Below are positions 12,726 through 64,000 of a stretch of 64,000 bases of DNA, piece after piece. Made by a program: the position numbers and the translations under genes. Source of the stretch: Candidatus Latescibacterota bacterium (GTDB lineage: Bacteria; Latescibacterota; UBA2968; UBA8231); the NCBI GenBank assembly GCA_965208105.1, contig OZ242318.1, positions 3,296,001 to 3,360,000 on the forward strand, in the 5' to 3' direction. Within the stretch, counting starts at the first letter, position 1; each line of letters opens with the position of its first letter. The notes beneath the pieces are model-generated. The model was not told where the DNA came from. It searched no databases and worked only from the letters and a program-made list of their open reading frames with translations.

Positions 12726-12739
12726 TTATTCCGTGTGCT

Positions 12740-14754: not shown

Positions 14755-14793
14755 GTCGAGGTTATCGGCTGAACTTTCCGAGAGGGAAGCGAT

Positions 14794-17008: not shown

Positions 17009-17023
17009 GGCGAAGGAATTGTC

Positions 17024-46463: not shown

Positions 46464-46480
46464 GGGAAGGCAAGCGGTTC
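46270..46480 (+). repeat. 211-bp direct repeat, copy A (potD 3' end plus 17 bp)
   Basis: Matches 48039-48249 with about 5 substitutions and no indels. Confidence 0.95.
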
Positions 46481-46535
46481 TCTTGAAGATGATGGGGAGG
46501 ATGGGGGCATCTGCCTCTCTCTGGTTGGATTGCGC

Positions 46536-47111: not shown

Positions 47112-47268
47112 CTTTCGTCAACTATTTTTTAGAATAGGTCAAAATGGTTCAGTATCCTCGGCCCTTAAAGGTGGACTTGCCCAATTGACAGCCGGCCCTC
47201 CTGTGCGAGCAACTGATCCCACAATCCGAGGAGTTGCTGGCACACCCGATTATCTTTGACGAAAAAGG

Positions 47269-47297
47269 TTGAATGGATATATCTAATTAGTTATAGT
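47269..47297 (+). promoter_or_regulatory. TA promoter with an overlapping palindromic operator
   Basis: TTGAAT-17 bp-TATAGT; imperfect palindrome TATAtCTAATTAGtTATA; ATG 6 bp after the -10 box. Confidence 0.6.
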
Positions 47298-47302
47298 CAA
47301 TT

Positions 47303-47689
47303 ATGGAGCGTAAGGGAGTACCCCTCAGAAAAGTCCGGTGGGTTGGAGATTGTAGAGAGCAAATACTGCGGTTTCCCAACCAGGTCCGCAAAGATATCGG
47401 GCATGCGCTCTACCTGGCGCAGACCGGACAAACGCCGCCCTCTGCCAAGCCAATGAGAGGCATTGAGCCGGGCGTATTCGAGATTGTCAGTAATTTTTCT
47501 ACAAACACCTACCGTGCCGTCTATACGGTCAAGATTGGCAGAAGCCTTTACGTGCTTCATGCATTTCAGAAGAAATCAAAAAGAGGGACCGCCACCCCTA
47601 AGAAAGATCTCGATTCAATCAAAGGACGGTTGAGACGAGCCAAGGAGCTGGATAAACAGGAGAGGAAAAACCATGACAGGGGAAATTAA
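47303..47689 (+). CDS. RelE/ParE-family toxin (Gp49/DUF891 type)
   Basis: FP..VRKDIG.AL..AQ.G, KPM.G...GV.EI, YRAVY and YVLHAFQKKS. Confidence 0.9.
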   Translation: MERKGVPLRKVRWVGDCREQILRFPNQVRKDIGHALYLAQTGQTPPSAKPMRGIEPGVFEIVSNFSTNTYRAVYTVKIGRSLYVLHAFQKKSKRGTATPKKDLDSIKGRLRRAKELDKQERKNHDRGN

Positions 47690-47999
47690 GGTTCGACAGA
47701 GCAGTGGCAACATTTTTGCCGATTTGGGATTTAGTGAAGAGGAAGCGAAAGAAGAGTTGCTCAAAGCCCAACTTGGCGCGGAGATTTTTCGGATTCTCGC
47801 ACACCGCAAGCTCACTCAGACGAAGGCAGCTGAGATTTTAGAAGTTAAGCAGCCAGAAATTTCCCGGCTTAAAAGCGGCAAGTTTTCCTATTACAGCGTC
47901 GAACGGCTGATGCGGTTTCTGGAGCGCCTGAATTGCGAGGTGAGCATTCATATTGCCTGGCCCGAAAGTGAAGGGGCCAAGAAGGTCATAGCGATATAG
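47673..47999 (+). CDS. XRE/HTH_37 antitoxin
   Basis: SSGNIFADLG and LTQ..AA..L...QPEISRL..G....YS.ERL. Confidence 0.9.
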   Translation: MTGEIKVRQSSGNIFADLGFSEEEAKEELLKAQLGAEIFRILAHRKLTQTKAAEILEVKQPEISRLKSGKFSYYSVERLMRFLERLNCEVSIHIAWPESEGAKKVIAI

Positions 48000-48038
48000 T
48001 CAGAGTCCCCACCCGACGACGAATCGCAGCGGTGCCGA

Positions 48039-48249
48039 ACATCGCCTACAGCCCGACGCGGAGATCAGCCGTGCCATTGATCTCGACCCACGCCGAAAAA
48101 GGGGTGGACATGATTCTGCACATGCCCACCAGTCCGCAGAATTCCAGCCGCGCTCTACGCAACGACTGGGAATGGTGGAGCGACCACGGCGACGAGATGA
48201 ACGAGCGCTTCAGCACCTGGCTGGCCAGGTGAGGGAAGGCAAGCGGTTC
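48039..48249 (+). repeat. 211-bp direct repeat, copy B (orphan potD 3' fragment)
   Basis: Encodes IAYSPTRRSAVP...FSTWLAR*, near-identical to the potD C-terminus. Confidence 0.95.
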
Positions 48250-48315
48250 AGGGTAGTCGGCTGGAGTGTCGTCTACAAAAGTTGATTCCGGGGTATTTAA
48301 GGAGAGTTCCCAGAA

Positions 48316-50358
48316 ATGGAAACACAGCAGAGCTTTGCTTTCGATGATCCACATTCCCGCACCCGGAGCGAGGGACTGGAGGTCGTCCATGCGTCCGCAA
48401 AGGGTTCGGAGAGATTCGACAGGGAATCTCTGTTCGGAGGTTTTACGGCTATGCGTGCGCTCACTTATACTCCGAGCATCCCTATGATTCTGGGCCTACT
48501 CAGAGATTACGACTACGAGGATTTCGAGTGTACCTTCGGGCACAGCGGCATATTGTCTCGGGACGCTGCCGACCTGTTGGGGTTCCAGTCCGTTGTGGAC
48601 GAAAAACTAAACAAAGGTTTTGTCGGGATCGGAGGTTTGCCCGAAGAACGCAGAAAGATCCTCTATGACCGCGCCGCGGAGGAAAGGGCCCGATTCTTCG
48701 TCGTCAAAGACGCTATAGCCCACGCCAAAATTTACCTTTTGAAAAAAGAAGGATTCAGGAGGGTAGTTGTCGGTTCCGCCAATCTTTCCGAGACCGCCTT
48801 CTCCGGAAGACAGGCCGAGACTTTGATTGTCTTCGACAACGATGAGACGGCATGGGAGCACTATAGCCGCCAGTACGATGCTGTCCGCCAGATTGCTTCG
48901 AGCAAAGTTCCTCTCCGGGAAAAGCCCATCCTTGCAGAGCATTTGCCAATTGAAGAGACTCCTGCACTGAAGCAGGCTGAAAGCAGCAGCGCCGACGTGG
49001 CACTATATGTTCCATCCGAACAGGAGAATGAGCGTGACTTCAGTATCCCTCAGGTTTTGTCCCAGGTGGAGCACATCAGGTCGGTCCGCCGCCGGGCCTT
49101 GGCTGATATTCACCCTGACAAAAAAGGCAATGTCAAGTTCACTGCGAGCATCATCAAACAGATGACTCGAATCCACACATCCAGACATGAGGATGAAGGT
49201 CCGAAGACATACCTCTCATACAACGGCGGCGTCTTTACCCTCTCCGGCAACGAGATTGGCATGGAGGCCGATCCGTCTCAAGTCCGCAGTGATGTCGGAG
49301 CCTGGTTGGAGTTTTTCGGGAATTATGCCAATGGCTTCGTGGGTGATATTCCAAGATTGCAGCGGGATTACTTCACGTTCATGTGCTGGTTCTATTTTTC
49401 GCCCCTGATGTGCGATTTGAGAAATGCCGCACTGCGCCAGAACCGCTTCAGCTTCGACCAGCCGATGTTCGCGGTACTCTATGGGCAAAGCAATTGCGGC
49501 AAGAGCAGCCTGATCGAAACTCTCATGACCTCCATGTTTTCACACCCGAGAATAGTTGAAACCCAATCTTTTACCCGCAGGAATCTTCGCGGTCTGCAAG
49601 AATCCTACAAACGGTTCCCCGTTGTCTTTGATGACGTCTCACGTGAACGGTTCAGCCGCCATGCTCCAGAGATCATCAAGGACGAGGCAATTTATTTTTC
49701 AGAGTATCCTTGTTTCGCCCTTTCCATGAATGCCGATGCGCGCAGCTTTCTACCCGAGATCGTGAAGCGCTGCCTGATGATTTACACGAGGACATCGCTC
49801 CCGGGCGACAACCCTACAGCCCGCCGAAAACTGCAGAGATCGGTCGCGTCAATTCGCGACAGGATGACCACCGCACTGTATAGGGAGTATCTGAGGCAGA
49901 TTGTTGAAGAATTGGATTCCCTGCGTGAATCTAACGCATCGGAAAGCGGTGAAGTGGATGCGCTCGAACTTTCCTCCAGCGTGTTGTGCCGCATCATGGA
50001 GGAGAACCTGCCGCCCGGAGCAAGAATGCCCGACTGGTGTTCTCCGATGACCTTGAGTGAATATCAGAGCCGGGCATTTGAAAGGCCACGCCTTGTCCTG
50101 GGGAATCTCCTGCATCCAGACAGATACAGCGGCCAGCGCAAACCGGCCGCTGGAAGCTGGACCATAACGGGGGATACGGTGATCATAGCGGGTGATATAA
50201 TGGCGTCGAGCCGTATAAAAAGCGACATACCGGACTGGATTCTGGACGATACCGCGAGCGTATCGGACCAGATCACTCTGAAACGCGACCAACTGGAAGA
50301 ATTTCTGGGCAGGCGCATGAGGTCTCCCCGGCGCTGGCTGCGGTTTCTACGAACTTGA
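48316..50358 (+). CDS. PLD-family (NgoFVII/BfiI-like) nuclease domain fused to a P-loop NTPase
   Basis: HAKIYLL...VVVGSANLS..AF...Q.E; Walker A LYGQSNCGKS; Walker B PVVFDD. Confidence 0.78.
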   Translation: METQQSFAFDDPHSRTRSEGLEVVHASAKGSERFDRESLFGGFTAMRALTYTPSIPMILGLLRDYDYEDFECTFGHSGILSRDAADLLGFQSVVDEKLNKGFVGIGGLPEERRKILYDRAAEERARFFVVKDAIAHAKIYLLKKEGFRRVVVGSANLSETAFSGRQAETLIVFDNDETAWEHYSRQYDAVRQIASSKVPLREKPILAEHLPIEETPALKQAESSSADVALYVPSEQENERDFSIPQVLSQVEHIRSVRRRALADIHPDKKGNVKFTASIIKQMTRIHTSRHEDEGPKTYLSYNGGVFTLSGNEIGMEADPSQVRSDVGAWLEFFGNYANGFVGDIPRLQRDYFTFMCWFYFSPLMCDLRNAALRQNRFSFDQPMFAVLYGQSNCGKSSLIETLMTSMFSHPRIVETQSFTRRNLRGLQESYKRFPVVFDDVSRERFSRHAPEIIKDEAIYFSEYPCFALSMNADARSFLPEIVKRCLMIYTRTSLPGDNPTARRKLQRSVASIRDRMTTALYREYLRQIVEELDSLRESNASESGEVDALELSSSVLCRIMEENLPPGARMPDWCSPMTLSEYQSRAFERPRLVLGNLLHPDRYSGQRKPAAGSWTITGDTVIIAGDIMASSRIKSDIPDWILDDTASVSDQITLKRDQLEEFLGRRMRSPRRWLRFLRT

Positions 50359-50564
50359 ATCGATTCTGACGTGGCCAGGCGCATACAAGAAATCCGGTCG
50401 ACAAACGCCGGCGGATTCCCTGGTAATCGCGAATTCGGCTACTCGCGAAGTGGTCTGCAACTGTGCAGGATTGTTAAAGGCAAACAGCTTAATCTGTGAA
50501 TTAGATGCCTTTACGCAGGAGAAAGGCGGAAAAAAGTATAAATGTCAGAGAAAAAGGAGATTTG

Positions 50565-50854
50565 ATGGACTACCTCGCGGAAAAAAACCTCAAGAAGACC
50601 AGGGAACTATGGGAAAAGCTTGCCAGTGAGCGGGAGTTGGTCATCACCCCAGGGATGGCAAACCTTTGGCCATGATGATCAGCATCTCTACTGAGACCGT
50701 AGAGGAGTCTCTGGCGGAGATTCGTCGGACGCTCTTTTCGGCCGCCATAAGGAGGGTTCGGAAGAGGGCTGAAAGGGAGGGGATACCGGACGACGCCGCG
50801 ATAGCAGCAGAGATCGATCAGAGTAGAAAGGGACGTGGTCTGTTTGAAAAATAG
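50565..50854 (+). pseudogene. Frameshifted Phd/YefM-type antitoxin with no adjacent toxin
   Basis: AAGGAG RBS, then MDYLAEKNLKKTRELWEKLASERELVIT; frame change at ACCCC (50646-50650); then RDGKPLAMMISIS...I.AEI...R. Confidence 0.65.
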
Positions 50855-50863
50855 TGGATTAGA

Positions 50864-52060
50864 GTGATAAACCACGACACCATCATCAAATTACGCGCTG
50901 CGGGTCTGGTCCTGCCGCTGCTGGCTTTCATCGGCCTGACCTTCATCGCGCCGCTGGCGACGATGCTGGTGCGCAGTGTTTACGATCCGGTGGTGGCGGA
51001 GGCGCTCCCCGGGACCCTCGCTCTGCTGCGCCAATGGGACGGGGAGGGGACGCCGGGAGAGGCGGTGTACGAGGCCGCCGCCAGGGAGCTGGTCAAGGCG
51101 AGGGCGGAGCGCACCCTGGGCCAGGTCGCCACCCGCGTCAACCGGGTGCAGGGAGGTCTGCGCAGCGTCCTGACCCGCAGTGCGCGGAAGCTGCAGAAGG
51201 TAAGCGAGGGGCCCTGGCGCGAGGCCATGATCGGGATGGATGCCGCCTGGGCCGAGGGGCAGACCTGGCACGCCATCCGCCGCACCGGAGATCGTTTCAC
51301 CCTGCGGCACTATCTCAACGCCCTCGACCTGCAACGGCTGCCCGACGGCTCCATCGGCGGCCAACCCGAGGAGCGCCGCATCTACCTTTCCCTCCTGTGG
51401 CGCACCTTGCTGGTGAGCCTTGGCATCACCGCCCTGTGCCTGCTGCTGGGATATCCCATCGCCCACCTGATCGCCCACGCCCCGCCCCGGCGCTCCAACC
51501 TTCTCCTCGCCCTGGTGCTGGTCCCGTTCTGGACCTCGCTGCTGGTGCGCACCACCTCCTGGATCGTCCTGCTCCAGAACCAGGGCGTGCTCAACAATGC
51601 CATGGTGGCCCTGGGGCTGATCGGCGACGACGGCCGGCTCGCCATGATCTACAACATGACCGGCACCTTCGTGGCCATGACCCACGTGCTGCTGCCCTTC
51701 ATGGTGCTGCCCCTCTACTCGATCATGCGCGCCATCCCCCCGGTCCAGATGAGCGCCGCCGCCTCCCTGGGAGCGAGTCACCTGCAGGCCTTCGTGCGCG
51801 TCTACTGGCCGCAGACCCTGCCCGGGGTGGGAGCCGGCTCCCTGCTGGTGTTCATCCTCGCCATCGGCTACTACATCACCCCCGCGCTGGTGGGCGGCAG
51901 CCGCGGCCAGCTTATTTCCAACATGATCGCCTACCACATGCAGACCTCGCTCAACTGGGCCCTGGCCGCCGCCCTGGGCGGCCTGCTGCTGGTGTGCGTG
52001 ATGGCCCTGTACTGGCTCTACGACCGCCTGGTGGGGGTCGAAGGCATGAGGCTGGGCTGA
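50864..52060 (+). CDS. Polyamine-type ABC permease (PotB-like)
   Basis: LGYPIA, PFWTSLLVRT..W, HVLLPFMVLPLYS, AA.SLGA and YYITPALVGG. Confidence 0.92.
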   Translation: MINHDTIIKLRAAGLVLPLLAFIGLTFIAPLATMLVRSVYDPVVAEALPGTLALLRQWDGEGTPGEAVYEAAARELVKARAERTLGQVATRVNRVQGGLRSVLTRSARKLQKVSEGPWREAMIGMDAAWAEGQTWHAIRRTGDRFTLRHYLNALDLQRLPDGSIGGQPEERRIYLSLLWRTLLVSLGITALCLLLGYPIAHLIAHAPPRRSNLLLALVLVPFWTSLLVRTTSWIVLLQNQGVLNNAMVALGLIGDDGRLAMIYNMTGTFVAMTHVLLPFMVLPLYSIMRAIPPVQMSAAASLGASHLQAFVRVYWPQTLPGVGAGSLLVFILAIGYYITPALVGGSRGQLISNMIAYHMQTSLNWALAAALGGLLLVCVMALYWLYDRLVGVEGMRLG

Positions 52061-52061
52061 A

Positions 52062-52895
52062 ATGATGGAGCAGGGGCTGGGGCCGCGAATTGGCAGATTC
52101 TGCTACCTGGGGCTGTGCGCCGCGGTTTTCGCCTTCCTGGTCGCGCCGATTCTGGTGATCGTTCCCCTGAGCTTCAACGCCGAGCCCTATTTCACCTTCA
52201 CCGAAGGCATGCTGCGCCTCGATCCGGAGGCCTACTCGCTGCGCTGGTACCGGCAGATCGTCGAGGAGGATGCCTGGACCCGGGCGCTGGCCAACAGCCT
52301 GATCATCGGGGCGGCCTCCACGGCGCTGGCGACCGCGCTGGGCACCCTCGCCTCCCTGGGGCTTTCCAGCGCCGCCATGCCGGCTCGCCGCCTGGCCATG
52401 GGTCTGCTGATCTCGCCGATGGTGACCCCGGTGATCATCTCGGCGGCGGGCATGTTCTTCTTCTACTCCAGCCTGGGTCTGGCCCAGTCGTACTTCGGAC
52501 TGATCCTGGCACACGCCGCCCTGGGCACGCCCTTCGTGGTGATCACGGTAACCGCCACTCTGTCCGCCTTCGATGCCAATCTGACCCGCGCCGCCGCCAG
52601 CCTGGGGGCGGGACCGCTGCGCACCTTCCGCAGCGTGCAGCTGCCGCTGATCGCGCCGGGGGTCGTCTCCGGGGCCCTGTTCGCCTTCGCCACCTCGTTC
52701 GACGAAGTGGTGGTGGTGCTCTTCATGGCCGGGGTGGAGCAGCGCACCATCCCGCGCCAGATGTGGGCGGGCATCCGCGAGCAGATCAGCCCCACCATCC
52801 TGGCCGTGGCGACCTTCCTGATCGTCTTCGCGGTGTTGCTGCTGTTCGTGGTCGAATGGCTGCGCCGGCGGTCGAGTGCGGGTGCGGCCGCTTGA
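52062..52895 (+). CDS. Polyamine-type ABC permease (PotC-like)
   Basis: SLRWY, SPMVTPVII, AH..LG.PFV, AAASLGA and FATSFDEVVV. Confidence 0.92.
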   Translation: MMEQGLGPRIGRFCYLGLCAAVFAFLVAPILVIVPLSFNAEPYFTFTEGMLRLDPEAYSLRWYRQIVEEDAWTRALANSLIIGAASTALATALGTLASLGLSSAAMPARRLAMGLLISPMVTPVIISAAGMFFFYSSLGLAQSYFGLILAHAALGTPFVVITVTATLSAFDANLTRAAASLGAGPLRTFRSVQLPLIAPGVVSGALFAFATSFDEVVVVLFMAGVEQRTIPRQMWAGIREQISPTILAVATFLIVFAVLLLFVVEWLRRRSSAGAAA

Positions 52896-52934: not shown

Positions 52935-54551
52935 TCAGGCGTCGAGCAGCGTTCTGGCGGCCTGGCGCGCCTCGTCCAGGGTTGCGACGATGCGCTCCGG
53001 CGGAACGTTCCGCAGGATGTCGAGGGTTTGCAGGGTATTCTCCACCGAGCCGGAGAGGCCCATCACGATGCATTCGGTCTTCTCTCCCCTGGCCACCCCA
53101 AGGAGTTGCTCGATGACCATGGCGGCGCTGTCGTCCAGGTAGGAGGCTTCCGAGAAGTCGAAGATGACGGCCTCGTGGTCCTTGATGTCGGCGCCGATCA
53201 CCCCGACCAGCTTGTTGGACGAGGCCACGGTGAGCCGCCCCCTCAGGGCAACGAGACCTACCCGGGCGGCGAAGGGGTCTTCTGCGGCAGCCTCTTTCTT
53301 CTCGGCCAGAAAGGTCTGGTCGAGCATGGGCACGGAGACCACGCTGTCGAGTTCCAGGCCTTCCAACTGGCGGGAGTTGGCCATGCCCGCTGCGATCAGT
53401 CCTATCGCCACGGCGGTTACCAGGTCGACGAACACCGTGAGGCTCAGGGTGATCATCATTACCAGAAGGTGCTCGCGCCGGATGCGGTGGACCCGGGTGA
53501 GAAGGCGCCAGTCAATAATGTCCCAGCCGACCTTCATGAGAATGCCGGCCAGAACCGCATGGGGTATGGGCTCCACAAATCGGCCCAGTCCGAGCAGCAG
53601 CCCCAGCAGAATCAGCGCGCGCATCGCGCCGGAAACCGGGGTCCGCCCGCCGGCGCGGATGTTGACCACGGTGCCCATGGTTGCCCCGGCGCCAGGCAGG
53701 CCCCCGAACAGTCCGGCAACCATGTTGCCGATGCCCTGGCCCACCAGCTCCCGGTTGGGGTTGTGGCGAGTACCGGTGAGGGAGTCGGCTATCAGGGAGG
53801 TCAGGAGGCTGTCTATGGAACCCAGCAGGGCGAGGATGACAGCGGGCTCCAGGGCCCTGGCCAGGAAGCTGGCCGAAGGCAGGGAGAGCTGCAGGCTCGG
53901 CAGGGTGGTCGGAATGGGTCCGATTATCGGTGCGTTGCTCAGCCACAGCACTCCCAGCATGGTGCCGACAACCAGCGCCATCAGAGGAGCGGGAAGGTAT
54001 TTCGAGAAGCGGCGGGGCCAGAGCACTCCCACCGCGAGAGTGACGGCGGCTATGGCGAAGGCACTGGTGTTGATCTGGGCTGCAGCCTCGGGCAGGGCGG
54101 CAATCGCGCCCATAGGTCCGCCCGACGCGGTGGGCGCTCCAAGGAACGGCAGGGCCTGAATCAGCATGATGATGATGCCGATGCCGGACATGAACCCGGA
54201 AATGACCACGTAGGGAGTATAGGCCACAAAGCGGCCGATTCTCAACAACCCGAGGAGGACCTGCAGCAGGCCTCCCAGAACAACCACAGTCAAAGCTTCG
54301 GTGAGGGTGGAGGCGTGGGTGGTGACGATGACTGCCATGGCGACGGTCATCGGACCCGTAGGACCGGAAATCTGGGACCGCGTACCGCCGAACACCGAGG
54401 CGAAAAAGCCCACGGCAATGGCGCCGTACAAGCCTGCGGCGGCCCCCAGACCCGACGCTACTCCGAAGGCCAGGGCCACTGGCAGCGCCACCACGGTGGC
54501 GGTCAGGCCGCCGAAGAGATCCCCCCGCAGGGTATGGAAATCGTATTTCAT
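52935..54551 (-). CDS. SulP-family anion transporter with a C-terminal STAS domain
   Basis: GDLFGGL...VVALP.ALAFG..SG, SGPTGPM, ELVGQGIGN and FDFS...YLDDSA. Confidence 0.94.
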   Translation of the reverse strand: MKYDFHTLRGDLFGGLTATVVALPVALAFGVASGLGAAAGLYGAIAVGFFASVFGGTRSQISGPTGPMTVAMAVIVTTHASTLTEALTVVVLGGLLQVLLGLLRIGRFVAYTPYVVISGFMSGIGIIIMLIQALPFLGAPTASGGPMGAIAALPEAAAQINTSAFAIAAVTLAVGVLWPRRFSKYLPAPLMALVVGTMLGVLWLSNAPIIGPIPTTLPSLQLSLPSASFLARALEPAVILALLGSIDSLLTSLIADSLTGTRHNPNRELVGQGIGNMVAGLFGGLPGAGATMGTVVNIRAGGRTPVSGAMRALILLGLLLGLGRFVEPIPHAVLAGILMKVGWDIIDWRLLTRVHRIRREHLLVMMITLSLTVFVDLVTAVAIGLIAAGMANSRQLEGLELDSVVSVPMLDQTFLAEKKEAAAEDPFAARVGLVALRGRLTVASSNKLVGVIGADIKDHEAVIFDFSEASYLDDSAAMVIEQLLGVARGEKTECIVMGLSGSVENTLQTLDILRNVPPERIVATLDEARQAARTLLDA

Positions 54552-54761
54552 GGAATGGTCTCCTTACAGTGGCTGGAGCGCGCCGGACCGGAGCAAGGCG
54601 AAGGAATAATTCACCTCCATGATTCAGGCCGGGTATATTCCGGATGAACGGGACCCGGCCGATTCCATCCGGCCAGGCAAATGGGAATTAATGCCACGTT
54701 CTCCGGTGACGCAACAACTTCGCAGCCTTCTCCCTCCGTTGGCGGACTGGAGAGGATGTGC

Positions 54762-54789
54762 TTGACTCTCAGGTCGTATATGGTATTTT
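54762..54789 (+). promoter_or_regulatory. Putative sigma70 promoter for the GPP34 gene
   Basis: TTGACT-16 bp-TATTTT with an extended -10 TG. Confidence 0.45.
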
Positions 54790-54810
54790 CCAACGAAAAA
54801 GGAATGGACG

Positions 54811-55467
54811 ATGCTGAGGTTCCCTGAAGAGCTCATGCTGCTGATCCTCGACGATGAGAACGGGAAATTCGCCCACGTTCCCGAGCGCCACCTGCGCTAC
54901 GCGATGGCGGGTGGAGTCCTCATGGACCTTGCCCTGGAGAACCGCATCGACACGGACCTGAAGCAGCTTATCCTCGTCGATTCGAGTCCGGTCGGGGACA
55001 GTCTGCTCGACCCGACCCTCGCGGATATTTCTCAGGAAACCGGGAGCCACGATGCGCGCTTCTGGGTGGAGCGCACTGCATTCCAGAGCGCCGACGCGAT
55101 TCGCGAAGAGGCGCTCGACCGGCTGGTGGAGCGCGGAATTCTGAAGCGCCAGGACGACAGGTTTCTGTGGGTCTTCCGGTCTCGGCGGTACCCGGTCATA
55201 GATGACCGGGCAGAACGGGAGGTCAAGCTCAGGATCATGGAAATTCTGTTCAGCGACGAGCTTCCCGACCCGCGCGATGTTGTGATCATCGGGCTGGCGC
55301 ATGCCTGCAACCTGTTCAGGCAGATTCTGTCTGCTCGTGAGTTGGAGCATGTTGCTCCTCGCATCGATCAAGTGCGCCGGCTCGACCTGATCGGCCAGGC
55401 CATGTCCCAGGCCATAACCGATATTGAAGTGTCACTTGCCCTCGCGGTGCAGATGAGGCCATATTAG
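54811..55467 (+). CDS. GPP34/GOLPH3 (Vps74)-family protein
   Basis: EELMLLILDDE.G, AGGVLMDLAL..RI, LLD..L, LV..GIL and LWVF...RYP. Confidence 0.82.
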   Translation: MLRFPEELMLLILDDENGKFAHVPERHLRYAMAGGVLMDLALENRIDTDLKQLILVDSSPVGDSLLDPTLADISQETGSHDARFWVERTAFQSADAIREEALDRLVERGILKRQDDRFLWVFRSRRYPVIDDRAEREVKLRIMEILFSDELPDPRDVVIIGLAHACNLFRQILSARELEHVAPRIDQVRRLDLIGQAMSQAITDIEVSLALAVQMRPY

Positions 55468-55658
55468 CCTTTGCCACAGGACGGGGCTCTGCAGGTTTCG
55501 CGGCGTGCCCCGGGCAGGATCCAGGGCCCGTATTGTTGGTTGGAGGGGTCAGTGGCCGGCAGGCAAGCAGGCGGGGGTGAAACCGCGCTTGCCGTCAGGG
55601 ATTTTCCGGAGAATTGGAATCAGGTCGTCAATCATTCATCAAGGGAGACTTGGGAAAG

Positions 55659-55991
55659 ATGGAAATTAAGGTCGAACGCGAGAACGGCACTCTGATCGCC
55701 CAGGTGGAAGGCCGGGTCGATAGTGCCAATGCCCGCGAATTCGAACAGGTACTCACTGAAGCCATCGGCGATGCCCAGGCCGTGGTCGTCGATTTCGAGG
55801 GTCTTTCCTACATCAGCAGCTCGGGCCTCCGCGTCCTTCTGCTGGTGGCCAAGACCTTGCGGCAGCGGTCGGCCAACCTGGCCCTGTGCGCCCTTTCGGA
55901 GTCGATCCGGGAAGTTTTCGAGATCAGTGGCTTCGACAAGATTATTGAGATTCACGATACCCGCGCCGAGGCCCTGGCAGCACAAGGCTAG
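55659..55991 (+). CDS. STAS anti-sigma-factor antagonist (RsbV/SpoIIAA-like), copy 1
   Basis: GRVDS, DF..LSYISSSGLRVLL and EVFEISGF. Confidence 0.92.
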   Translation: MEIKVERENGTLIAQVEGRVDSANAREFEQVLTEAIGDAQAVVVDFEGLSYISSSGLRVLLLVAKTLRQRSANLALCALSESIREVFEISGFDKIIEIHDTRAEALAAQG

Positions 55992-56259
55992 TGCCCCCGG
56001 CGCAATCCAGGATGCCGCCCGGGACCCCGGGTGAGCCCGAACAGGCGCTTCCTCGAGGATGCAGTGGGAGTGGCCTTCCGCTGATCGAACAGGGGCTGCT
56101 GAATCAGGCGGACATCCGGCGGGGAGGGCGCAGGAAGCTGCCGCCGACCGCTCCCCGAGACCTTTTCATCCCCAGAATCATGTCCCTTATCCTCTTCCCC
56201 TCCGATTACTTCCAGGCCATACAACCCATCTGGCGCCGCAGCGCCCGGAGTTGAACCCA

Positions 56260-57426
56260 ATGGAAACGTCTTACAAGATCCTCGTAGTGGACGACGAACC
56301 CGACCTCGAACATCTCGTGCGGCAGCGCATGCGCCGCGACGTTCGCGCCGGACGCTACTCTTTCACCTTTGCCCACAACGGCGTCGAGGCACTGGAACGG
56401 CTCAACGAGGAGCCGGACATAGACATGGTGCTCACCGACATCAATATGCCCCAGATGGACGGGCTCACCCTGCTCGAGCAGATCCCCAAGGTCGACCCGG
56501 ACATCCGTTCCGTGATCGTCTCGGCATATGGAGACATGAAGAACATCCGCACCGCAATGAACCGCGGCGCCTTCGACTTTGTCACCAAGCCCATAGATTT
56601 CCAGGATCTGCGCGTCACCATCGACCGCACCTTGCACCACCTTACCCTTTGGCGCGAAGCCCTGGCCTCCCGCGACAAGCTGGTGGCGCTGCAGAACGAG
56701 CTGCACGTGGCCAGCCAGATGCAGCAGTCGATTCTGCCCACCAGCTTTCCCGAGCGTCCCGGCTGTCAGGTCTTCGGCAACATGGAGCCCGCCCGCGAGG
56801 TGGGAGGAGACTTCTTCGATGTAATAAGCCTGGAGCACGGCCGTCTCGGGCTGGCTATCGCCGACGTCTCCGACAAGGGTGTTCCCGCGGCGTTGTTCAT
56901 GATGTCAAGCCGCACCCTGCTCAAGGGAGCGGCCATTGGAGACTCGAATCCGGGAACGGTGCTGGCGGAGGCCAACCGGCTGCTTGAGCAGGAAAACGAA
57001 GCCTCCCTGTTCGTCACCATGTTTTACGCAGTGTTCGACCCTGAGAGCGGCGAACTGGTGTACGCCAACGGCGGGCACAATCCACCGTTGATTCTCCACC
57101 CTGACGGCAGTTCGACTCTGCTGCCCTCCACCTCGGGGATCGCCCTGGGATTGCTGCCGGACTTCGACTACGAGCAGGACACCGTCATCCTGTCGGCCGG
57201 CGATATTCTCGTGCTCTACACGGACGGCGTCACCGAGGCCATGAACAGCGACGACGAGGAGTTCGGGCTGGAGCGCCTGCACCAGGTGCTGGCCGAAGCG
57301 CCGCAGGAGGACGCCCGCGCGGCCAATCAGGCTGTTTTCGCCGCAGTGGGGGAGTTCGCCGGGGAAAGGCCGCAGTTCGACGACATCACCTGCGTGACCT
57401 TGCGCTACAGCGGCCAGGGCCAATGA
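56260..57426 (+). CDS. Receiver domain plus PP2C/SpoIIE phosphatase (RsbU/RsbP-like)
   Basis: ILVVDDE, TDINMP.MDG and FVTKP; EVGGDFFD, ADVSDKG, NGGH, YTDGVTEA and DDIT. Confidence 0.94.
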   Translation: METSYKILVVDDEPDLEHLVRQRMRRDVRAGRYSFTFAHNGVEALERLNEEPDIDMVLTDINMPQMDGLTLLEQIPKVDPDIRSVIVSAYGDMKNIRTAMNRGAFDFVTKPIDFQDLRVTIDRTLHHLTLWREALASRDKLVALQNELHVASQMQQSILPTSFPERPGCQVFGNMEPAREVGGDFFDVISLEHGRLGLAIADVSDKGVPAALFMMSSRTLLKGAAIGDSNPGTVLAEANRLLEQENEASLFVTMFYAVFDPESGELVYANGGHNPPLILHPDGSSTLLPSTSGIALGLLPDFDYEQDTVILSAGDILVLYTDGVTEAMNSDDEEFGLERLHQVLAEAPQEDARAANQAVFAAVGEFAGERPQFDDITCVTLRYSGQGQ

Positions 57427-57845
57427 GCACAAAGAGGTCGCTGCGGATCGCGACGGATCTCGGCGAGCTGGAGCGCATCCAGGCCGCAGTGGAAGAGCTG
57501 GAACAGGAGGCGGGCTGGACGCCCGACTTCGTCTACCAGGTCAACCTCGCTCTCGAGGAGCTGGTCGTAAACGTCATCAACTACGGCCACGGCGGCGACC
57601 CCAATCACGAAATCGAGGTGGTCTTCGACTGGGACGCGGACAGGCTCACCATCGAGATGGTGGACGACGCACCTGCCTTCAATCCCCTGGAAGATGCCCC
57701 CGACCCCGATCTGGCCTCGGAGCTGGAAGAGCGGCACGTGGGCGGCCTGGGAATCTACCTGGTCCACACCCTGATGGACGAGTTGAACTACAGGCGCGAG
57801 CGGGACCGCAATCATCTGACACTGATCAAGCGCGTGAAGGGTTGA
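57423..57845 (+). CDS. RsbW/SpoIIAB-like anti-sigma Ser kinase, copy 1
   Basis: LALEELVVNVINYG, DDAPAFNP and GGLGIYLV; ATGA overlap with the phosphatase. Confidence 0.92.
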   Translation: MSTKRSLRIATDLGELERIQAAVEELEQEAGWTPDFVYQVNLALEELVVNVINYGHGGDPNHEIEVVFDWDADRLTIEMVDDAPAFNPLEDAPDPDLASELEERHVGGLGIYLVHTLMDELNYRRERDRNHLTLIKRVKG

Positions 57846-57930: not shown

Positions 57931-59673
57931 CTAGGAGGCGCTCTCGATCCGCACCGCAATTATATCCATGTCGTTGTACTTCTGGTGGCGCACCGAAGAG
58001 GCGTAGTGCCGCAGCAGGCGGAACGAAATCTCGCGTTCGTCCACGAGCTCGGGCTGTTCGCTGAGATAGGCCAGCCGGTCCTCGACGTTCTCTCCCGCGG
58101 AAGAGGCGAGGAACTCCAGCTCCGCGGCGCCTTCGGCCACACGCGCATTGAGGATCAGCCGGCCTCCCCCGGCACCATCCTCGCCCCCATTCTGTTGTAC
58201 CAGGATTGCCAGCGTCTCTTCTCCCGCGGCGCGCAGACGTTCGGTCGAGGCTTCGTTCCAGCCTATTTTCGCGGAGAACCTCTGGAGGAAGCTGTCGATC
58301 TCAGGCAGGGAACGGTCGGCCAGCTCGACCTCCAGCCGCCGCTTCCGCGCTCCCGTCCACTCCAGGAACGCGGTCAGCAGGATCGCGGCCAGACCCCCGG
58401 CGGTCATGCCGTTGCCGAGCAGGTTGCCCCAGGTACTGCCCAGCAGGTCGGCGAAGATCACCTGGTTCTGAAAGCCCACACCGATCCAGAAGGACAGACC
58501 CGCGATGGCGGCCTTGCGGTGATCGAGCCCGCTTTCGACGACCAGCTTCATTCCCTGTACGAAGAGCAGAGCGATGAGGAGGGTGACATAGGCCGCGCCT
58601 ACGGGATTGGGAATGGCGATCAGGAGGGCCGTAACCTTGGGAGACAGGGCCAGGAGTATGAAAATGATGCCGATGTAGACCCCGACGCGGCGTGCGGCGA
58701 CCCCGGTCAGCTCTGCTAGGGAAATGCTGGTGGAGTAGGTGGTGTTGGGCGGGGTCCCCGCGAGCCCGGAGAGCAGGTTGCCCATGCCGTCGGCGTTCAG
58801 GGCACCCTGGACCAGGCGAAAATCAGTTGCCCTCCGCTGCCGCCTCGAGACCCTTTGAATTGCGACGCCGTCGCCGATGGTTTCAATGGCGCCCACCAGG
58901 GTCACGACAATGAATGCCGGCAGAAGGGCCCAGAACTCCGCACCCAGGGAAAGGTCCAATCCGGGCCAGGAACTGTCGGGGAGTCCGATCCAGGGGGCCT
59001 GGATCACTGGCTGAAGGTCGAATAGTCCGAAGGGGGCGGCCACGGCGCATCCCGCCGCGATGCCGATGAGCGGCGCCCACAGCCGCCAGGTTACCGGTGC
59101 CCGCAGCGTAAGGACCACGAGGACGGCGAGGGTCGCTCCCGAGGCGGCGGGGGCCGCCTCGACGGGGGTGCCGGCGGGAACCTCGGTCAGCAGGCCGAAG
59201 ATGACCGGCATTACGGTGACCGCGATCAGCATGATCACCGTTCCGGAGACCACCGGAGTGATGATTCGGCGCAGCAGCGAAAGGCGCGCGGCCAGAGCGA
59301 ACTGAACCAGGGAAGAAGCTACTATCAGGGTCGCCATCAGAGACGGCCCACCCTTCACCAGAGCAGCGATGCAGACCGCAATGAAAGCGCCTGAAGTGCC
59401 CATGATGAGCACGTGCCCGGCCCCGATGCGGCCGACCCGGACCGCCTGCAGGACAGTGCTGACTCCACTGATCATCAGCGCTGCGAAGGCCACCCAGGTC
59501 AGGTAGCTCTGGGGCTGTTCGGCGGCCCTGGCGATGATGACCGCGCTGAGCACCACCGGCGCCAAGACGACGACCGCCGCCTGAAATCCGGCCCCTGCGG
59601 CTACCGAGTGGGGTGGCCGCTCCTCTGGCTCGAAGCGGATGTTTCCGGTTCCCTGCGCAGTTTCCAAGGCCAT
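57931..59673 (-). CDS. NCS2 (xanthine/uracil) permease fused to a C-terminal RsbW-like domain
   Basis: MGTSGAF, TP.VSG.VI, ETIGD, ADG.GN and PNTTYS...LTGVAAR.VG; about 140-aa soluble tail. Confidence 0.85.
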   Translation of the reverse strand: MALETAQGTGNIRFEPEERPPHSVAAGAGFQAAVVVLAPVVLSAVIIARAAEQPQSYLTWVAFAALMISGVSTVLQAVRVGRIGAGHVLIMGTSGAFIAVCIAALVKGGPSLMATLIVASSLVQFALAARLSLLRRIITPVVSGTVIMLIAVTVMPVIFGLLTEVPAGTPVEAAPAASGATLAVLVVLTLRAPVTWRLWAPLIGIAAGCAVAAPFGLFDLQPVIQAPWIGLPDSSWPGLDLSLGAEFWALLPAFIVVTLVGAIETIGDGVAIQRVSRRQRRATDFRLVQGALNADGMGNLLSGLAGTPPNTTYSTSISLAELTGVAARRVGVYIGIIFILLALSPKVTALLIAIPNPVGAAYVTLLIALLFVQGMKLVVESGLDHRKAAIAGLSFWIGVGFQNQVIFADLLGSTWGNLLGNGMTAGGLAAILLTAFLEWTGARKRRLEVELADRSLPEIDSFLQRFSAKIGWNEASTERLRAAGEETLAILVQQNGGEDGAGGGRLILNARVAEGAAELEFLASSAGENVEDRLAYLSEQPELVDEREISFRLLRHYASSVRHQKYNDMDIIAVRIESAS

Positions 59674-59795: not shown

Positions 59796-60569
59796 TCAAA
59801 GGCGCCATACCAGCAGCAACTGGGCCGTGCTCTCGTCCTGGTCCGTGCCGAGCTTGTTGAGCCAATACTGGTATTCCACTCCCACCATGAACTGATGGGG
59901 AACTCCGGCTACGGCCCTGCCGAGATCCCAGGTGATTTGCGGCTGAGCGAGAACCGACCCTTTGAGGTCCTCGTTCAGCTCGTTGGTGCGACCGCCCAGG
60001 TACTCGGCATGGCCGACGACGGCCAGAGACTGATCCCCGATCCCGAAGGGGAGGGCCCAGTTGAGGTCGATCATGAAGCTGTTGTCGGCCTTGGGGGCGC
60101 CGCCACCCGCCAGGCCGATGTTGTCGTCCATGTAGGCGGTAAGGTCCGTGTTCAGAAACAGGAATCCCGGGATGTCCCAGGATACCCTCAGGCCCGGAAG
60201 GTACTTCAGGACTTTGGCCGCACCGCCCACGTTGACTCCGCCTATGATGGAAAAGTCAGCAACGGGGCCGAGGCTCAACTGCTCGTTGGACAGCTTGCCG
60301 AGACTCAAGGTTGGATACCACTCGGCGTAGAAGTCCCTCTCGTTGAAGCCGTCCTCCCCGCCGTCATTGAGGTAATCCAGAAAGAAGAAGCTGTCACCCA
60401 ACTTCCATCCCGAAGCCTGTTGCATGGTGAATACGAAGGTCCGATCCTGGGTTGCCGAGAATGGATTTTTCAGTTTGCCGTACTGCAGGTGGAACTCCGT
60501 TTGAGCTGGAATTGCGGTCCGGGTCACCAGGACCGCAGCCATCAGAAATCCGGCGTATGCTGTTTTCAT
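59796..60569 (-). CDS. Tsx-like nucleoside-specific outer-membrane channel
   Basis: Signal peptide, W..GD.FFF.D, Y.EWYP.LSLGK, QPQ..WD and GVEYQYW.NK.G; ends WRL. Confidence 0.82.
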   Translation of the reverse strand: MKTAYAGFLMAAVLVTRTAIPAQTEFHLQYGKLKNPFSATQDRTFVFTMQQASGWKLGDSFFFLDYLNDGGEDGFNERDFYAEWYPTLSLGKLSNEQLSLGPVADFSIIGGVNVGGAAKVLKYLPGLRVSWDIPGFLFLNTDLTAYMDDNIGLAGGGAPKADNSFMIDLNWALPFGIGDQSLAVVGHAEYLGGRTNELNEDLKGSVLAQPQITWDLGRAVAGVPHQFMVGVEYQYWLNKLGTDQDESTAQLLLVWRL

Positions 60570-60790: not shown

Positions 60791-61123
60791 ATGGAAATCA
60801 ATGTCGAACGTGAGGACGGAACCATGATCGCCGTGGTGAAAGGCCGGGTCGACAGCGCAAACGCCCGGGAATTCGAGCAAGTGCTCACCGAAGCCATCGG
60901 CGATGACCACAACGTAGTTATCGATTTCGCGGGGCTTGCCTACATCAGCAGTTCGGGTCTGCGCGTCCTTCTGATGGTGGCCAAGTCGCTGCGGCAGCGG
61001 TCGGCGCACCTTGCGCTGTGCTCCCTTTCGACGGCGATCCGGGAGGTTTTCGAGATCAGTGGCTTCGACAAGATCATTCCGATTCACGACACTCGCGCCG
61101 AAGCCGTTGCCGCGCTCGGCTGA
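60791..61123 (+). CDS. STAS anti-sigma-factor antagonist, copy 2
   Basis: Close paralogue of 55659-55991 (GRVDSANAREFEQVLTEAIGD, YISSSGLR). Confidence 0.92.
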   Translation: MEINVEREDGTMIAVVKGRVDSANAREFEQVLTEAIGDDHNVVIDFAGLAYISSSGLRVLLMVAKSLRQRSAHLALCSLSTAIREVFEISGFDKIIPIHDTRAEAVAALG

Positions 61124-61193: not shown

Positions 61194-61616
61194 ATGAACA
61201 TTAACCGCTTACTGCGCATAGCGACTGACCTGGGTGAGTTGAAGCGGATTCACGCCCTGGTGGAGGATGTGGGGAAGGAAGCCTCCTGGTCCCCCAGTTT
61301 CATCTACCAGGTCAACCTCGTCCTCGAGGAGTTGGCCGTCAATGTCATCAACTACGGGCACGGCGGCGACCCCAATCACGAGATCGAGATCGTCCTGGAC
61401 TGGGACGATGACCAGCTCACCATCGAGATGGTGGACGATGCCCCCGTCTTCGATCCCCTGAAAGACGCCCCCGATCCCGACCTGACCTCGGCGCTCAAGG
61501 ACCGGCCCATTGGCGGCCTGGGGGTTTATCTGGTTTATACCTTCATGGATGAGTTGAGCTACCGCCACGAGGAGGGCCGCAACCATCTCACATTGGTCAA
61601 GCGGAGGAAGGGATGA
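61194..61616 (+). CDS. RsbW/SpoIIAB-like kinase, copy 2
   Basis: Close paralogue of 57423-57845 (EELAVNVINYGHGGDPNHEI, GGLGVYLV). Confidence 0.92.
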   Translation: MNINRLLRIATDLGELKRIHALVEDVGKEASWSPSFIYQVNLVLEELAVNVINYGHGGDPNHEIEIVLDWDDDQLTIEMVDDAPVFDPLKDAPDPDLTSALKDRPIGGLGVYLVYTFMDELSYRHEEGRNHLTLVKRRKG

Positions 61617-62776
61617 GGGCGGCGGCCGCCTCACTCGCAGTTTTTACTGCGGTTGTGGCGATTGACGCCGAAGAAACGGGGGTCTCCCACCAGCGCATCC
61701 TCTTTGGCCAGTCGGCGGCATTCAGTGGCCCCGCCCAGGAGCTGGGCAAGAATATGCGGCGCGGTATCCAGGCCGCGTTTGCGGAAGCCAACCGGCAGGG
61801 CGGCGTGCATGGCCGGCAGTTGGAGTTGCAGTCTCTCGACGACGCCTACGAACCCGAGGCCGCCATCGCCAACACCCGCCAACTTATCGAGCAGGAAGGG
61901 GTGTTCGCGCTCATCGGCGCAGTCGGCACCCCCACCTCGCGCTCGGCCACTCCTGTAGCCGCCGCCGCCGCCGTTCCCTACATCGCTCCTTTCACCGGCG
62001 CCGCTTTCCTGCGCCAGCCGATGTGGTCCAACGTGATCAACCTGCGGGCCTCCTACAACCAGGAGACCGAGGCCATGGTCGCGCGCCTGACAGCGGACCT
62101 GGGCATCGAGCGCATCGCGGTGATGTATCAGGACGACTCCTTCGGACGGGCTGGCTACCGCGGGGCGCGCCAGGCGCTCGAGCGCCGAGGCATGGAGCCG
62201 GTGGCCATAGGCGTGTACCCGCGCAATACCACGGCGGTGAAGACCGCCCTGCTCGACTTGCGCAGCGCAGATCCGGGCGCCGTCATCCTGGTGGGGGCGT
62301 ACCAGCCTGTGGCGGCCCTTATCGCCTGGGCCCGGCACACCGGCTGGGACCCGGTCTTCATAACCATCTCCTTCGTGGGCAGCAATGCCCTGGCCCGGGA
62401 GCTGGGCCGCGGCGGCACCGGTGTCTTCGTCACCCAGGTTGTTCCCTTTCCCGCCAACGACATCCCTCCGGTGGTCGCCGCCTACCGCCGCGCCCTGGCC
62501 GCCCATGCGCCTGAAGCCGCGCCCGGCTTCGTATCCCTGGAAGGCTACCTGGCAGGCCGATTGGCCATTGCCGCCCTCGAACGCTGCGGTCCCGAGGTTG
62601 ACCGGGCTCGCTTCCTGGAGAGTCTGCGCCGCGACGGTCTCATCGACCTTGGGGGCTTCGAGCTGAGCTACGGGGAAGCAGACAACCAGGGATCGGATGC
62701 CGTCTTCCTGACCGCGATCGGCAGCGACGGCACCTATTTCCCGATCGATACCCTGCGCGAGGCGAAAATGCCATGA
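61613..62776 (+). CDS. Periplasmic binding protein, LivJ/Peripla_BP_6 type
   Basis: GQSAAFSGPA..LG, N..GGVHGR, DDAYEP, GAVGTPTS and YQDDSFG. Confidence 0.9.
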   Translation: MRAAAASLAVFTAVVAIDAEETGVSHQRILFGQSAAFSGPAQELGKNMRRGIQAAFAEANRQGGVHGRQLELQSLDDAYEPEAAIANTRQLIEQEGVFALIGAVGTPTSRSATPVAAAAAVPYIAPFTGAAFLRQPMWSNVINLRASYNQETEAMVARLTADLGIERIAVMYQDDSFGRAGYRGARQALERRGMEPVAIGVYPRNTTAVKTALLDLRSADPGAVILVGAYQPVAALIAWARHTGWDPVFITISFVGSNALARELGRGGTGVFVTQVVPFPANDIPPVVAAYRRALAAHAPEAAPGFVSLEGYLAGRLAIAALERCGPEVDRARFLESLRRDGLIDLGGFELSYGEADNQGSDAVFLTAIGSDGTYFPIDTLREAKMP

Positions 62777-64000
62777 CCGGCCTGCTCAAACGCCTGCTCA
62801 AGGGCCGTTTCCGCATCTCGGCGCAGCTCTATTTCGGCATCGGCGGCGCCGTCGCCCTTACCATGGGGGCGAGTCTGGTCGGCTGGTTCGCTTTCAACAA
62901 GGTGGGCGACTCCCAGCGTCTGGTAAACGAGGACAGCCTTCCGGAGATGGCGGCCGCCTTCGCCGTCGCCCAGCAAAGCGGCACTCTGACGGCCGCCGCT
63001 CCTCGCCTGACGGCCGCGGCCACTCCCGAGGATTTCGCCAGGGTGGCCGCCGGGATCGCCGCGGAGCGGGAGGCCTTCGAGACCCGCCTGGAGGAGCTGA
63101 CCCGGCAGGGAGGGGAGGATGAGCGCTTCGTGCGCATTCGCGCCCACGGAGACTCGCTGATCGCCAACATCGCCGCCATCGACAGCTCGGTGGCCGAGCG
63201 CTTCGCCCTGGCCGCCCGCAGCGAGGCGCTCCGCGCCGAATTGGCCGCGGTTCGCGGCGGGTTGGTGGGGATTCTGGTCCCCGCCATTGACGATCAGCTA
63301 TTCTATGCCATGACCGGCTACCGGAACCTCGGTGAAGCCCCCGTTTCCCGCGCTCGCCATTTCTCGGAGGTGGAGTTCGACCGCTATCGTCACCTGGCCG
63401 AGCTGCAGGCGGACGCCACCATCGCCATCCAGCTTCTCGCCAGCGCCTTCAACCTGTCTGACGCCGCCCTGATCGAGCCTCTGCGGGAGCGCTTCGAGGC
63501 CGCAGCCGGCAGGATCGAGCGCCGCCGGTCGGTCTTCGGAGCTACCCCTTCGCAGGACCGCATCGCCGGGGCTTTCGAACGCTTGTTCCGCCTGGGGTTG
63601 GGCGAGCAGAGCGGCTTCAATTTGCGCGCCAGCGAGCTCGGGCTCGCGGAGCAGCAAAGGGGGCTGCTCGGCCGCAACCGCAGCCTTGCCATCGACCTCG
63701 TCGCCGAGGTGGAGGGTCTGGTGAGCGAGGCCCGCACGAGCGCCGAGGAAGCCTCCCAGGCCTCCACCGAGGCGATCCTCACGGGACGCCGTCTGCTCCT
63801 TGCCCTCAACGTGGTCAGCATCGTGGGGGCCCTGCTGATCGCCTACCTGTTCGTAGGCCGGGTCCTCCTGCGCCGCCTGGAGCGGTTGTCCGACCGCATG
63901 CGCGGGATGGCCGGAGGTGATCTGGAGACCAGGGTCGATATCGGCGGCCACGACGAGGTCGCCGACATGGCTTCGGCGCTCGAGGTCTTCCGTCGCCACG
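62773..64000 (+). CDS. TorS-like membrane sensor with HAMP domain (runs off the window; probably a histidine kinase)
   Basis: Manual translation from ATG 62773: TM1, a long helical periplasmic domain, TM2 (LLALNVVSIVGALLIAYLFVG) and HAMP (RL..L...M...A.GDL...V...G.DEVADMA.ALEVFR); no stop seen. Confidence 0.82.
   Translation, partial: MTGLLKRLLKGRFRISAQLYFGIGGAVALTMGASLVGWFAFNKVGDSQRLVNEDSLPEMAAAFAVAQQSGTLTAAAPRLTAAATPEDFARVAAGIAAEREAFETRLEELTRQGGEDERFVRIRAHGDSLIANIAAIDSSVAERFALAARSEALRAELAAVRGGLVGILVPAIDDQLFYAMTGYRNLGEAPVSRARHFSEVEFDRYRHLAELQADATIAIQLLASAFNLSDAALIEPLRERFEAAAGRIERRRSVFGATPSQDRIAGAFERLFRLGLGEQSGFNLRASELGLAEQQRGLLGRNRSLAIDLVAEVEGLVSEARTSAEEASQASTEAILTGRRLLLALNVVSIVGALLIAYLFVGRVLLRRLERLSDRMRGMAGGDLETRVDIGGHDEVADMASALEVFRRH

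Follow-up and report, generated by a model that had tools for sequence, protein, structure and literature searches.

What would a domain resembling the partner-switching kinase RsbW do at the end of a membrane transporter? The question is raised by one gene in a 64,000-nucleotide stretch of Candidatus Latescibacterota DNA (assembly GCA_965208105.1, contig OZ242318.1, positions 3,296,001 to 3,360,000 of the forward strand), which we call the window and whose numbering is used below. The gene lies on the reverse strand (57931..59673, stop codon included) and encodes a 580-amino-acid NCS2-type permease with a C-terminal RsbW-like tail. We are almost certain that the product is a secondary transporter with the NCS2/NAT fold, that it represents a separate subfamily with no characterised member, and that it carries a cytoplasmic, kinase-dead domain of the RsbW/SpoIIAB type. 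As to the role of that domain, the reading we favour, at a probability of roughly 45%, is that the tail serves as a receptor for an unphosphorylated single-domain STAS protein; the transporter would therefore be an output of the partner-switching cassette that flanks it, a cassette without a sigma factor.

The permease and its C-terminal tail

The permease core (residues 28-401; 58471..59592, reverse strand) matches the Pfam family PF00860 (Xan_ur_permease) at 164.6 bits against a cut-off of 27 (E 3.7e-48), and solved chains of UapA, UraA and SLC23A1 show detectable homology to it (E 1.8e-17 to 2.7e-8). The NCBIfam nucleobase-permease models match as well, each below its cut-off: pbuX scores 208.3 against 414.15 and ncs2 189.9 against 291.8, and the uracil permease and RutG models, which score lower than these two, also fall short. 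The NAT signature motif, located in transmembrane helix 10 (TM10), reads [Q/E/P]-N-x-G-x-x-x-x-T-[R/K/G]. In a phmmer alignment to the solved UapA chains, FAENNGVIALTR of UapA stands against YSTSISLAELTG of the permease, that is, F-A-E-N-N-G-V-I-A-L-T-R against Y-S-T-S-I-S-L-A-E-L-T-G. The divergent signature, T-S-I-S-L-A-E-L-T-G, thereby occupies residues 315-324 (58702..58731, reverse strand), with T, S and S (T315, S316 and S318) at the Q/E, N and G positions, LAEL after them, and T323 and G324 kept. The first-pass annotation had pointed out that TTYSTS takes the place of the usual (Q/E)N, and both the UapA alignment and an alignment of 40 homologues, in which the divergent signature is nearly invariant, bear this out. 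The Glu/Asp residues of TM8 are kept as E264, the equivalent of the substrate-binding E356 of UapA, and D268 (aIEtIGDgvA aligned to aCEcIGDvtA), E264 being at least 90% conserved and D268 invariant among the same homologues.

The tail (residues 442-580, 139 amino acids; 57934..58350, reverse strand) starts with RKRR just after the last membrane helix. It matches no Pfam family even at E<=10, PF13581 and PF02518 included, and BLASTP aligns it to the neighbouring kinase RsbW1 at E 1.4 only, so its likeness to RsbW escapes ordinary sequence tools. A profile search of PDB sequences gave a GAL4 match as its sole result (E 0.056), which we judged to be chance.

The likeness emerges from structure prediction. 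AlphaFold2, run on an alignment of 45 tails, gave a model with a pLDDT of 81.3 and a pTM of 0.78, in which the elements follow the order beta-alpha-alpha-beta-beta-alpha-(flexible 99-107)-alpha-beta-beta (tail numbering). Against the PDB, the top Foldseek matches are all RsbW-family proteins (UsfX, SpoIIAB and RsbW; E 1e-6 to 2e-5, TM 0.59-0.79). Structural alignment with VIA-align 2 ranks UsfX first (8ih8_C; Z 15.6, root-mean-square deviation 2.2 Å over 114 residues), followed by the RsbW domain of Rv1364c (Z 15.3), RsbW (6m36_A, Z 15.0) and SpoIIAB (1l0o_A, Z 14.9). SiaB comes fifth (Z 11.6) and LvrC after it (Z 11.2), before a clear drop to the CA domains of histidine kinases (Z<=8.0). The closest RsbW-family matches superpose with deviations of 2.0-2.6 Å over 103-120 residues at a sequence identity of 15% or less, and clusters carrying PF13581 were among the returns of a protein-atlas feature search. 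An RsbW/SpoIIAB-type GHKL (Bergerat) fold is therefore well supported for the predicted model of the tail. The earlier reading of the gene as an NCS2 permease fused to an RsbW-type domain, and of its tail as a GHKL fold, is upheld by the open reading frame coordinates, the PF00860 match and the RsbW-family Z scores of 14.9-15.6. A full-length AlphaFold2 model built with 40 close homologues was of mediocre quality (pLDDT 68.9, pTM 0.61) and was not used to place the tail on the membrane domain.

What the tail has lost can be read from an hhalign comparison in which the 45 tails were set against 20 RsbW proteins; the window supplied two of these, and relatives and related loci the others. Tail residues 4-89 pair with RsbW1 residues 5-88 over 84 columns (probability 71%, E 3.6e-5), and the register is the one first proposed for this DNA (LPEIDSF..GW..AAGEETLAI against LERIQAA..GW..LALEELVVN). 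In the helix equivalent to the N-box (residues 485-491, EETLAIL; 58201..58221, reverse strand), E485 is invariant and E486, which pairs with the invariant E46 of RsbW, is present in 44 of the 45 tails. I490 replaces the Mg/ATP-binding Asn, pairing with N50 of the RsbW N-box, in a column that holds S in 20 tails, I in 11, T in 8, N in 4, and V and A in 1 each. A523 pairs with the invariant D81 of the RsbW G1 box; the tails have S, A, G, T or C here and Asp in 0 of 45. At the place of the GGLG (G2) box they read R/E-I-S-F, with no glycine, in a register taken from topology only because hhalign stopped at tail residue 89. Among the 20 RsbW proteins, E46, N50, G108 and G110 are all invariant. The first-pass annotation was thus right that the N-box Asn and the GGLG box have gone, with the Asn surviving in 4 of 45 tails and the G2 glycines judged in the topological register. 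Since three nucleotide-binding motifs are lost, ATP binding has probably been lost with them, and the motifs alone suggest the same of catalysis.

The fusion is common. At E<=1e-3, 2415 protein clusters (90% identity) match residues 436-580, and nearly all of their listed members are proteins of about 575-580 amino acids with PF00860 as the sole annotated domain. A profile of the 45 tails, aimed at stand-alone or differently fused tails, matched 713 clusters at 50% identity, of which the best 150 have the same architecture or are fragments, while other architectures may occur among the weaker 563; among the matches listed, 5 of the 11 oddly positioned tails that were examined look like frameshifted calls. 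Relatives are encoded in at least 583 stretches of one-genome-per-species contigs (583 of 601 matched stretches were confirmed). The best 80 of these loci comprise 18 from Latescibacterota, 3 from Gemmatimonadota, 2 from Opitutales, 2 from Acidimicrobiia, 54 from Chloroflexota (mostly Dehalococcoidia/SAR202) and 1 unclassified.

A putative STAS dock between two switch modules

If the tail no longer works as a kinase, it may still bind the protein that RsbW kinases bind. We modelled the complex from the 45-tail alignment and an alignment of 17 STAS proteins, together with three controls. With STAS2, a single-domain anti-sigma antagonist with a phospho-serine motif encoded near the permease gene (60791..61123, forward strand; Pfam STAS), the tail reached ipSAE values of 0.84, 0.81 and 0.81, against 0.00 for the best of the three controls. 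The partner had a pLDDT of 92, and the runs shared at least 94% of their contacts. The mark used for such models is passed by 116 of 157 solved complexes and by 2 of 215 mismatched pairs. In the model the phospho-serine Ser54, invariant in 17 of 17 STAS proteins, contacts E44, E45, A48, I108, S109 and L112 of the tail (tail numbering; E44/E45 are E485/E486), a placement that we take to be the canonical SpoIIAA-SpoIIAB geometry. The core of the predicted interface (E485, E486, L488, S550, R552, L553 and R555) is conserved.

The setting of the gene fits a STAS receptor. Two partner-switching modules enclose the permease gene and a channel gene upstream of it. The first (55614-57845) holds three forward-strand genes identified by Pfam: STAS1 (55614..55991, with a likely true start at 55659), a response-regulator receiver fused to a PP2C (SpoIIE-type) phosphatase (56260..57426; SpoIIE/PP2C E 1.1e-56), and RsbW1, a HATPase_c_2 kinase convergent with the permease gene (57423..57845). 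The second (60791 to beyond 63999), also on the forward strand, holds STAS2, the HATPase_c_2 kinase RsbW2 with its N-box and GGLG (61194..61616; Pfam), a periplasmic binding protein of the Peripla_BP_6 family (61613..62776), and the N-terminal part of a sensor kinase, with a TorS-like sensor and HAMP, which runs off the window (62773..63999). A full-length orthologue of this sensor kinase in a related locus (L002) adds HisKA and HATPase_c. The core of a partner switch is in place, with genes for a PP2C phosphatase, for a STAS protein whose Ser can be phosphorylated and for an RsbW kinase that keeps its N-box. In other lineages the cassette forms one uninterrupted block (STAS, receiver-PP2C, RsbW, binding protein, kinase); in the window it seems to have been duplicated and broken up, with the channel and permease genes in between.

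A PF13581 scan of the 4.85-Mb genome found seven places, and the only two small standalone RsbW genes among them both flank the permease gene; the same scan does not detect the permease tail. No SigB/F/G-type sigma factor scores above the TIGR02980 cut-off genome-wide (best 126.6 bits against 234.35) and none lies in the locus, so the switch has no visible transcriptional output.

Tail and kinase also tend to occur together. Across 153 genomes of the phylum the tail is found in 69 and an RsbW1-type gene (E<=1e-15) in 82; 68 genomes have both, 1 has only the tail, 14 have only the RsbW1-type gene and 70 have neither. Counted by genus, RsbW1-type genes occur in each of the 10 that have the tail and in 6 of the 36 that lack it; the distance between one tail gene and the RsbW gene is 8-35 kb in several genera. 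A general link between tail and RsbW is thus supported in part: the co-occurrence is suggestive, not proof, given the kinship of the genomes and the possibility that one island carries both genes.

We infer STAS binding, an effect on transport and a direction of signalling as follows. The periplasmic binding protein and the TorS-like sensor kinase would govern the receiver-PP2C phosphatase, which would dephosphorylate STAS. The phospho-serine face of free STAS would then settle on the side of the tail where the degenerate ATP site lies (E485/E486, I549-S550, R552-L553 and R555-H556), and this docking would alter transport activity. RsbW1 and RsbW2, as true kinases, would phosphorylate STAS again and so release it from the tail. 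We assign the parts in this way, with the tail as a kinase-dead STAS receptor and RsbW1 and RsbW2 as the resetting kinases, because of the analogy to mycobacterial RsbW1/UsfX. More tentatively, the locus may represent a partner-switching relay that controls a transporter directly and not transcription, within a large multi-phylum family of NCS2-fold permeases that are gated post-translationally and carry substrates other than nucleobases.

What weighs against a STAS receptor, and its rivals

Several observations weigh against the STAS receptor. The model may have passed its test through likeness to solved complexes, SpoIIAB-SpoIIAA and RsbW-RsbV; with such complexes solved, a pass shows likeness and not binding by this particular copy. 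Mean conservation is 0.70 at the predicted interface and 0.65 elsewhere in the tail, a difference that is not significant (one-sided Mann-Whitney p 0.16). RsbW is common anyway, being present elsewhere in 5 of 5 genomes from other phyla and matched in 11 of 14 control genomes; the 14 genomes of the phylum with an RsbW1-type gene and no tail count on the same side, as does the kinship of the sampled genomes, which are not independent. Cassette and permease may also travel together on a shared island, and an ABC transporter recurs beside them both in the window and in an Opitutales locus (L018). The earlier proposal that the tail docks STAS proteins is thus supported only indirectly, with the complex model, the gene neighbourhood and the co-occurrence speaking for it, and the interface conservation and the likeness to solved complexes against it.

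The family at large adds to these doubts. Neighbourhoods were counted within 8 kb of the permease in the best 80 related loci of at least 583. Homologues of the window RsbW proteins are found there in 9 of the 80, of STAS in 8, of the receiver-PP2C protein in 15 and of the Tsx-like channel in 17, so that 71 loci have no RsbW nearby, and clustering of the neighbours in the 80 loci gave no partner gene conserved family-wide. The top neighbour 'families' after the permease itself proved to be overlapping alternate-frame open reading frames and were rejected. The RsbW-linked loci fall in three phyla: Latescibacterota (L001 and L002), Opitutales (L018 and L040) and Dehalococcoidia (L027, L044, L047, L061 and L063). 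Their spacing differs: RsbW flanks the permease gene in Latescibacterota; in Opitutales it lies 4.4 kb upstream, with an ABC transporter in between; in Dehalococcoidia it lies downstream, at about 3-4 kb. The genome of the window itself encodes two further tailed paralogs, far from any RsbW, that keep the same motifs.

These facts would be accommodated by an intrinsic structural or regulatory tail that needs no STAS partner, one that dimerises beneath a dimeric transporter and stabilises or gates it in the manner of the STAS domain of SLC26/SulP carriers, the switch genes being hitch-hikers on an island. We consider this unlikely, though it deserves to be taken seriously. SpoIIAB and RsbW are dimeric, and the dimer is also the working form of NCS2 carriers. 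The loci without a cassette nearby and the paralogs in other contexts with the same motifs would follow naturally, as would strongly conserved stretches (such as ENxED and YASSVRHQKYH) outside the predicted STAS interface. Such a tail does not explain why the only two RsbW/STAS modules of the genome flank this gene, why 68 of 69 tail-bearing genomes also carry an RsbW1-type gene, or why the phospho-serine of STAS is modelled with high confidence on the conserved E485/E486 face.

The tail also contains invariant polar residues, N529, E531, D532, H563 and D570 (window 57964-58086; an E-N-x-E-D motif), that lie outside the predicted STAS interface and that no reading considered here accounts for. 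That the STAS interface leaves them unexplained would suit a remodelled nucleotide pocket whose small-molecule ligand, be it a metabolite or a non-canonically bound nucleotide, tunes transport allosterically. The equivalent of the ATP lid (tail 99-107), predicted to be flexible like the ligand-gated lids of GHKL proteins, would suit it too. With all three nucleotide-binding motifs lost, we regard such a pocket as improbable.

Slightly harder still to credit is a true transceptor, in which the tail would be a membrane-tethered anti-sigma or sequestering domain and would release its partner, a sigma factor or some other protein that is not STAS, depending on the transport state. The nearest structural relatives of the tail are anti-sigma factors solved with sigma F (8jzt and 1l0o), and excerpts of one study describe kinase-negative UsfX and RsbW1 as anti-sigma factors (PMC7693655). 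The genome, as noted, offers no SigB/F/G-type sigma above the cut-off, and the locus none at all. Finally, a tail that is still an active kinase or ATPase through unconventional residues seems very improbable: it could appeal to the kept equivalents of the catalytic-base glutamate and to the few tails with Asn at the N-box position, and it faces a G1 box without Asp in any tail, no G2 glycine, an N-box Asn missing in 41 of 45 and no match to PF13581 or PF02518.

Known systems, substrates and neighbouring genes

The closest functional precedent for the STAS receptor, and the best structural match to the tail, is UsfX of Mycobacterium tuberculosis (PDB 8ih8 and 8jzt), with RsbW1 of M. smegmatis. 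According to the M. smegmatis study (PMC7693655), STAS antagonists bind to the kinase-negative RsbW1, RsfB is phosphorylated by RsbW2, a second protein that has the N, G1 and G2 motifs, and a phosphatase encoded beside a histidine kinase reverses that phosphorylation. The proposed parallel is a kinase-dead RsbW-type domain that binds unphosphorylated STAS, whose state is set by a separate RsbW kinase and a phosphatase. The mycobacterial proteins are soluble, about 140 amino acids long and have sigma F as a second partner, whereas the tail is fused to a 14-helix transporter in a genome with no SigB/F/G sigma found, shares at most 15% identity with them, and is only predicted to bind STAS.

Other comparisons place the protein between known families. 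With SpoIIAB and RsbW (PF13581) the tail shares the fold, the order of elements and, in the model, a STAS phospho-serine on the N-box helix; it differs in lacking the N-box Asn, the G1 Asp, the G2 glycines and a Pfam match, and in being fused to a membrane protein. The permease resembles NAT/NCS2 carriers (UapA, UraA, XanQ/PbuX and SLC23) in its PF00860 match, its homology to their chains and its TM8 Glu/Asp, and departs from them in having T-S-I-S for Q/E-N-x-G, in scoring below the NCBIfam cut-offs and in its extra domain of about 139 amino acids. NCS2 carriers share their fold with SLC26/SulP carriers. There too a secondary carrier ends in a cytoplasmic domain drawn from anti-sigma partner switching; theirs is the antagonist (STAS), whereas the permease bears the kinase partner (RsbW-like), a mirror-image fusion. 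The SiaABCD, HptB-HsbR-HsbA and SypE-SypA systems likewise combine STAS, an RsbW-type kinase and PP2C with a non-sigma output, their targets being diguanylate cyclases, FlgM or biofilm functions.

In open-access full text and bioRxiv we found neither an account of an NCS2 carrier joined to an RsbW-like domain nor one of a transporter with its own STAS-receptor domain. Among mentions of transporters or fusions, excerpts of a review of STAS-only proteins name SLC26/SulP only (PMC8256260). It is plausible, then, that a known fold and a known carrier family meet here in an unreported fusion that constitutes a new type of output for partner switching. Sigma-less partner-switching modules are common in genomes and their targets mostly unknown; the locus offers a concrete candidate target with its own docking domain. 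If the STAS receptor is real, it would be a new kind of regulatory tail on the NCS2 fold and would complete a symmetry with the SLC26/SulP carriers, which bear the antagonist half. Given that the family is large and the tail unannotated by Pfam, defining it as a domain would by itself improve many annotations.

The surroundings of the gene and of its paralogs bear on the substrate. Directly upstream of the permease gene, across a 122-bp gap, lies a gene for a Tsx-like outer-membrane channel (59796..60569, reverse strand; Channel_Tsx, 27.7 bits against 27.2), and its homologue holds the directly upstream position in 17 of the 80 related loci. A scan for promoters and terminators found nothing above shuffled sequence that bears on an operon. 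The channel suggests a nucleoside- or nucleobase-like small molecule, though the TM10 motif is non-canonical; this divergence, together with the range of settings in which the paralogs occur (Tsx-like channel, aromatic-catabolism genes and a polyketide synthase (PKS) cluster), suggests non-nucleobase substrates.

The two paralogs in the same genome illustrate this variety. One, of 577 amino acids (L117, G000:C1:4059500-4077500, at 8245-9978), has as its neighbours (9991-17970) an alpha/beta hydrolase, a 4'-phosphopantetheinyl transferase and a type I PKS with KS, AT, MT, ER, KR and ACP domains that is cut by the end of the locus. The other, of 586 amino acids (L118, G000:C1:1019000-1037000), lies in a same-strand run (6405-13022) with a 582-amino-acid Rieske-domain protein (oxygenase), a glyoxalase/extradiol-dioxygenase-like protein and an FAA hydrolase, and a MerR regulator is encoded divergently. 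This second context hints at an aromatic or heterocyclic substrate.

Some features of the wider locus stand apart from these questions. The G1 box of the window RsbW proteins reads D-D-A-P-A-F, not D-x-G-x-G, and the other aligned RsbW proteins have D-x-G-x-G-F. The cassette is highly similar across Latescibacterota, Opitutales and Dehalococcoidia. Adjoining it in the window (52935-55467) are a SulP-STAS transporter gene (52935-54551), 3.4 kb from the permease gene, and a bacterial homologue of GPP34 (Golgi phosphoprotein 3 family); of the 80 related loci, 11 contain GPP34 and 9 contain SulP. Further away, the genes of an ABC transporter (45153-52895), which consists of an SBP_bac_8 binding protein and a pair of BPD_transp_1 permeases, are separated by the gene for a 680-amino-acid protein with a PLD-type restriction-endonuclease domain (48316-50358), and a DNA methylase lies at 44026-45054. 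The similar ABC transporter of the Opitutales locus L018 stands directly upstream of the tailed permease.

In a related genome, the corresponding locus (G010:C1:847423-853085) contains tail fragments, in open frames of 51 and 90 amino acids, and an RsbW fragment with an internal TGA, all between intact copies, signs of past duplication and decay at the site. Eight Dehalococcoidia loci (L032, L033, L034, L045, L067, L078, L079 and L080) hold tandem or nearby tailed paralogs, whose second copies have a more divergent tail, with 34-40% identity to that of the window in six of the eight and 61-63% in L078 and L080; several of these second-copy tails carry an acidic insertion after the N-box-equivalent helix.

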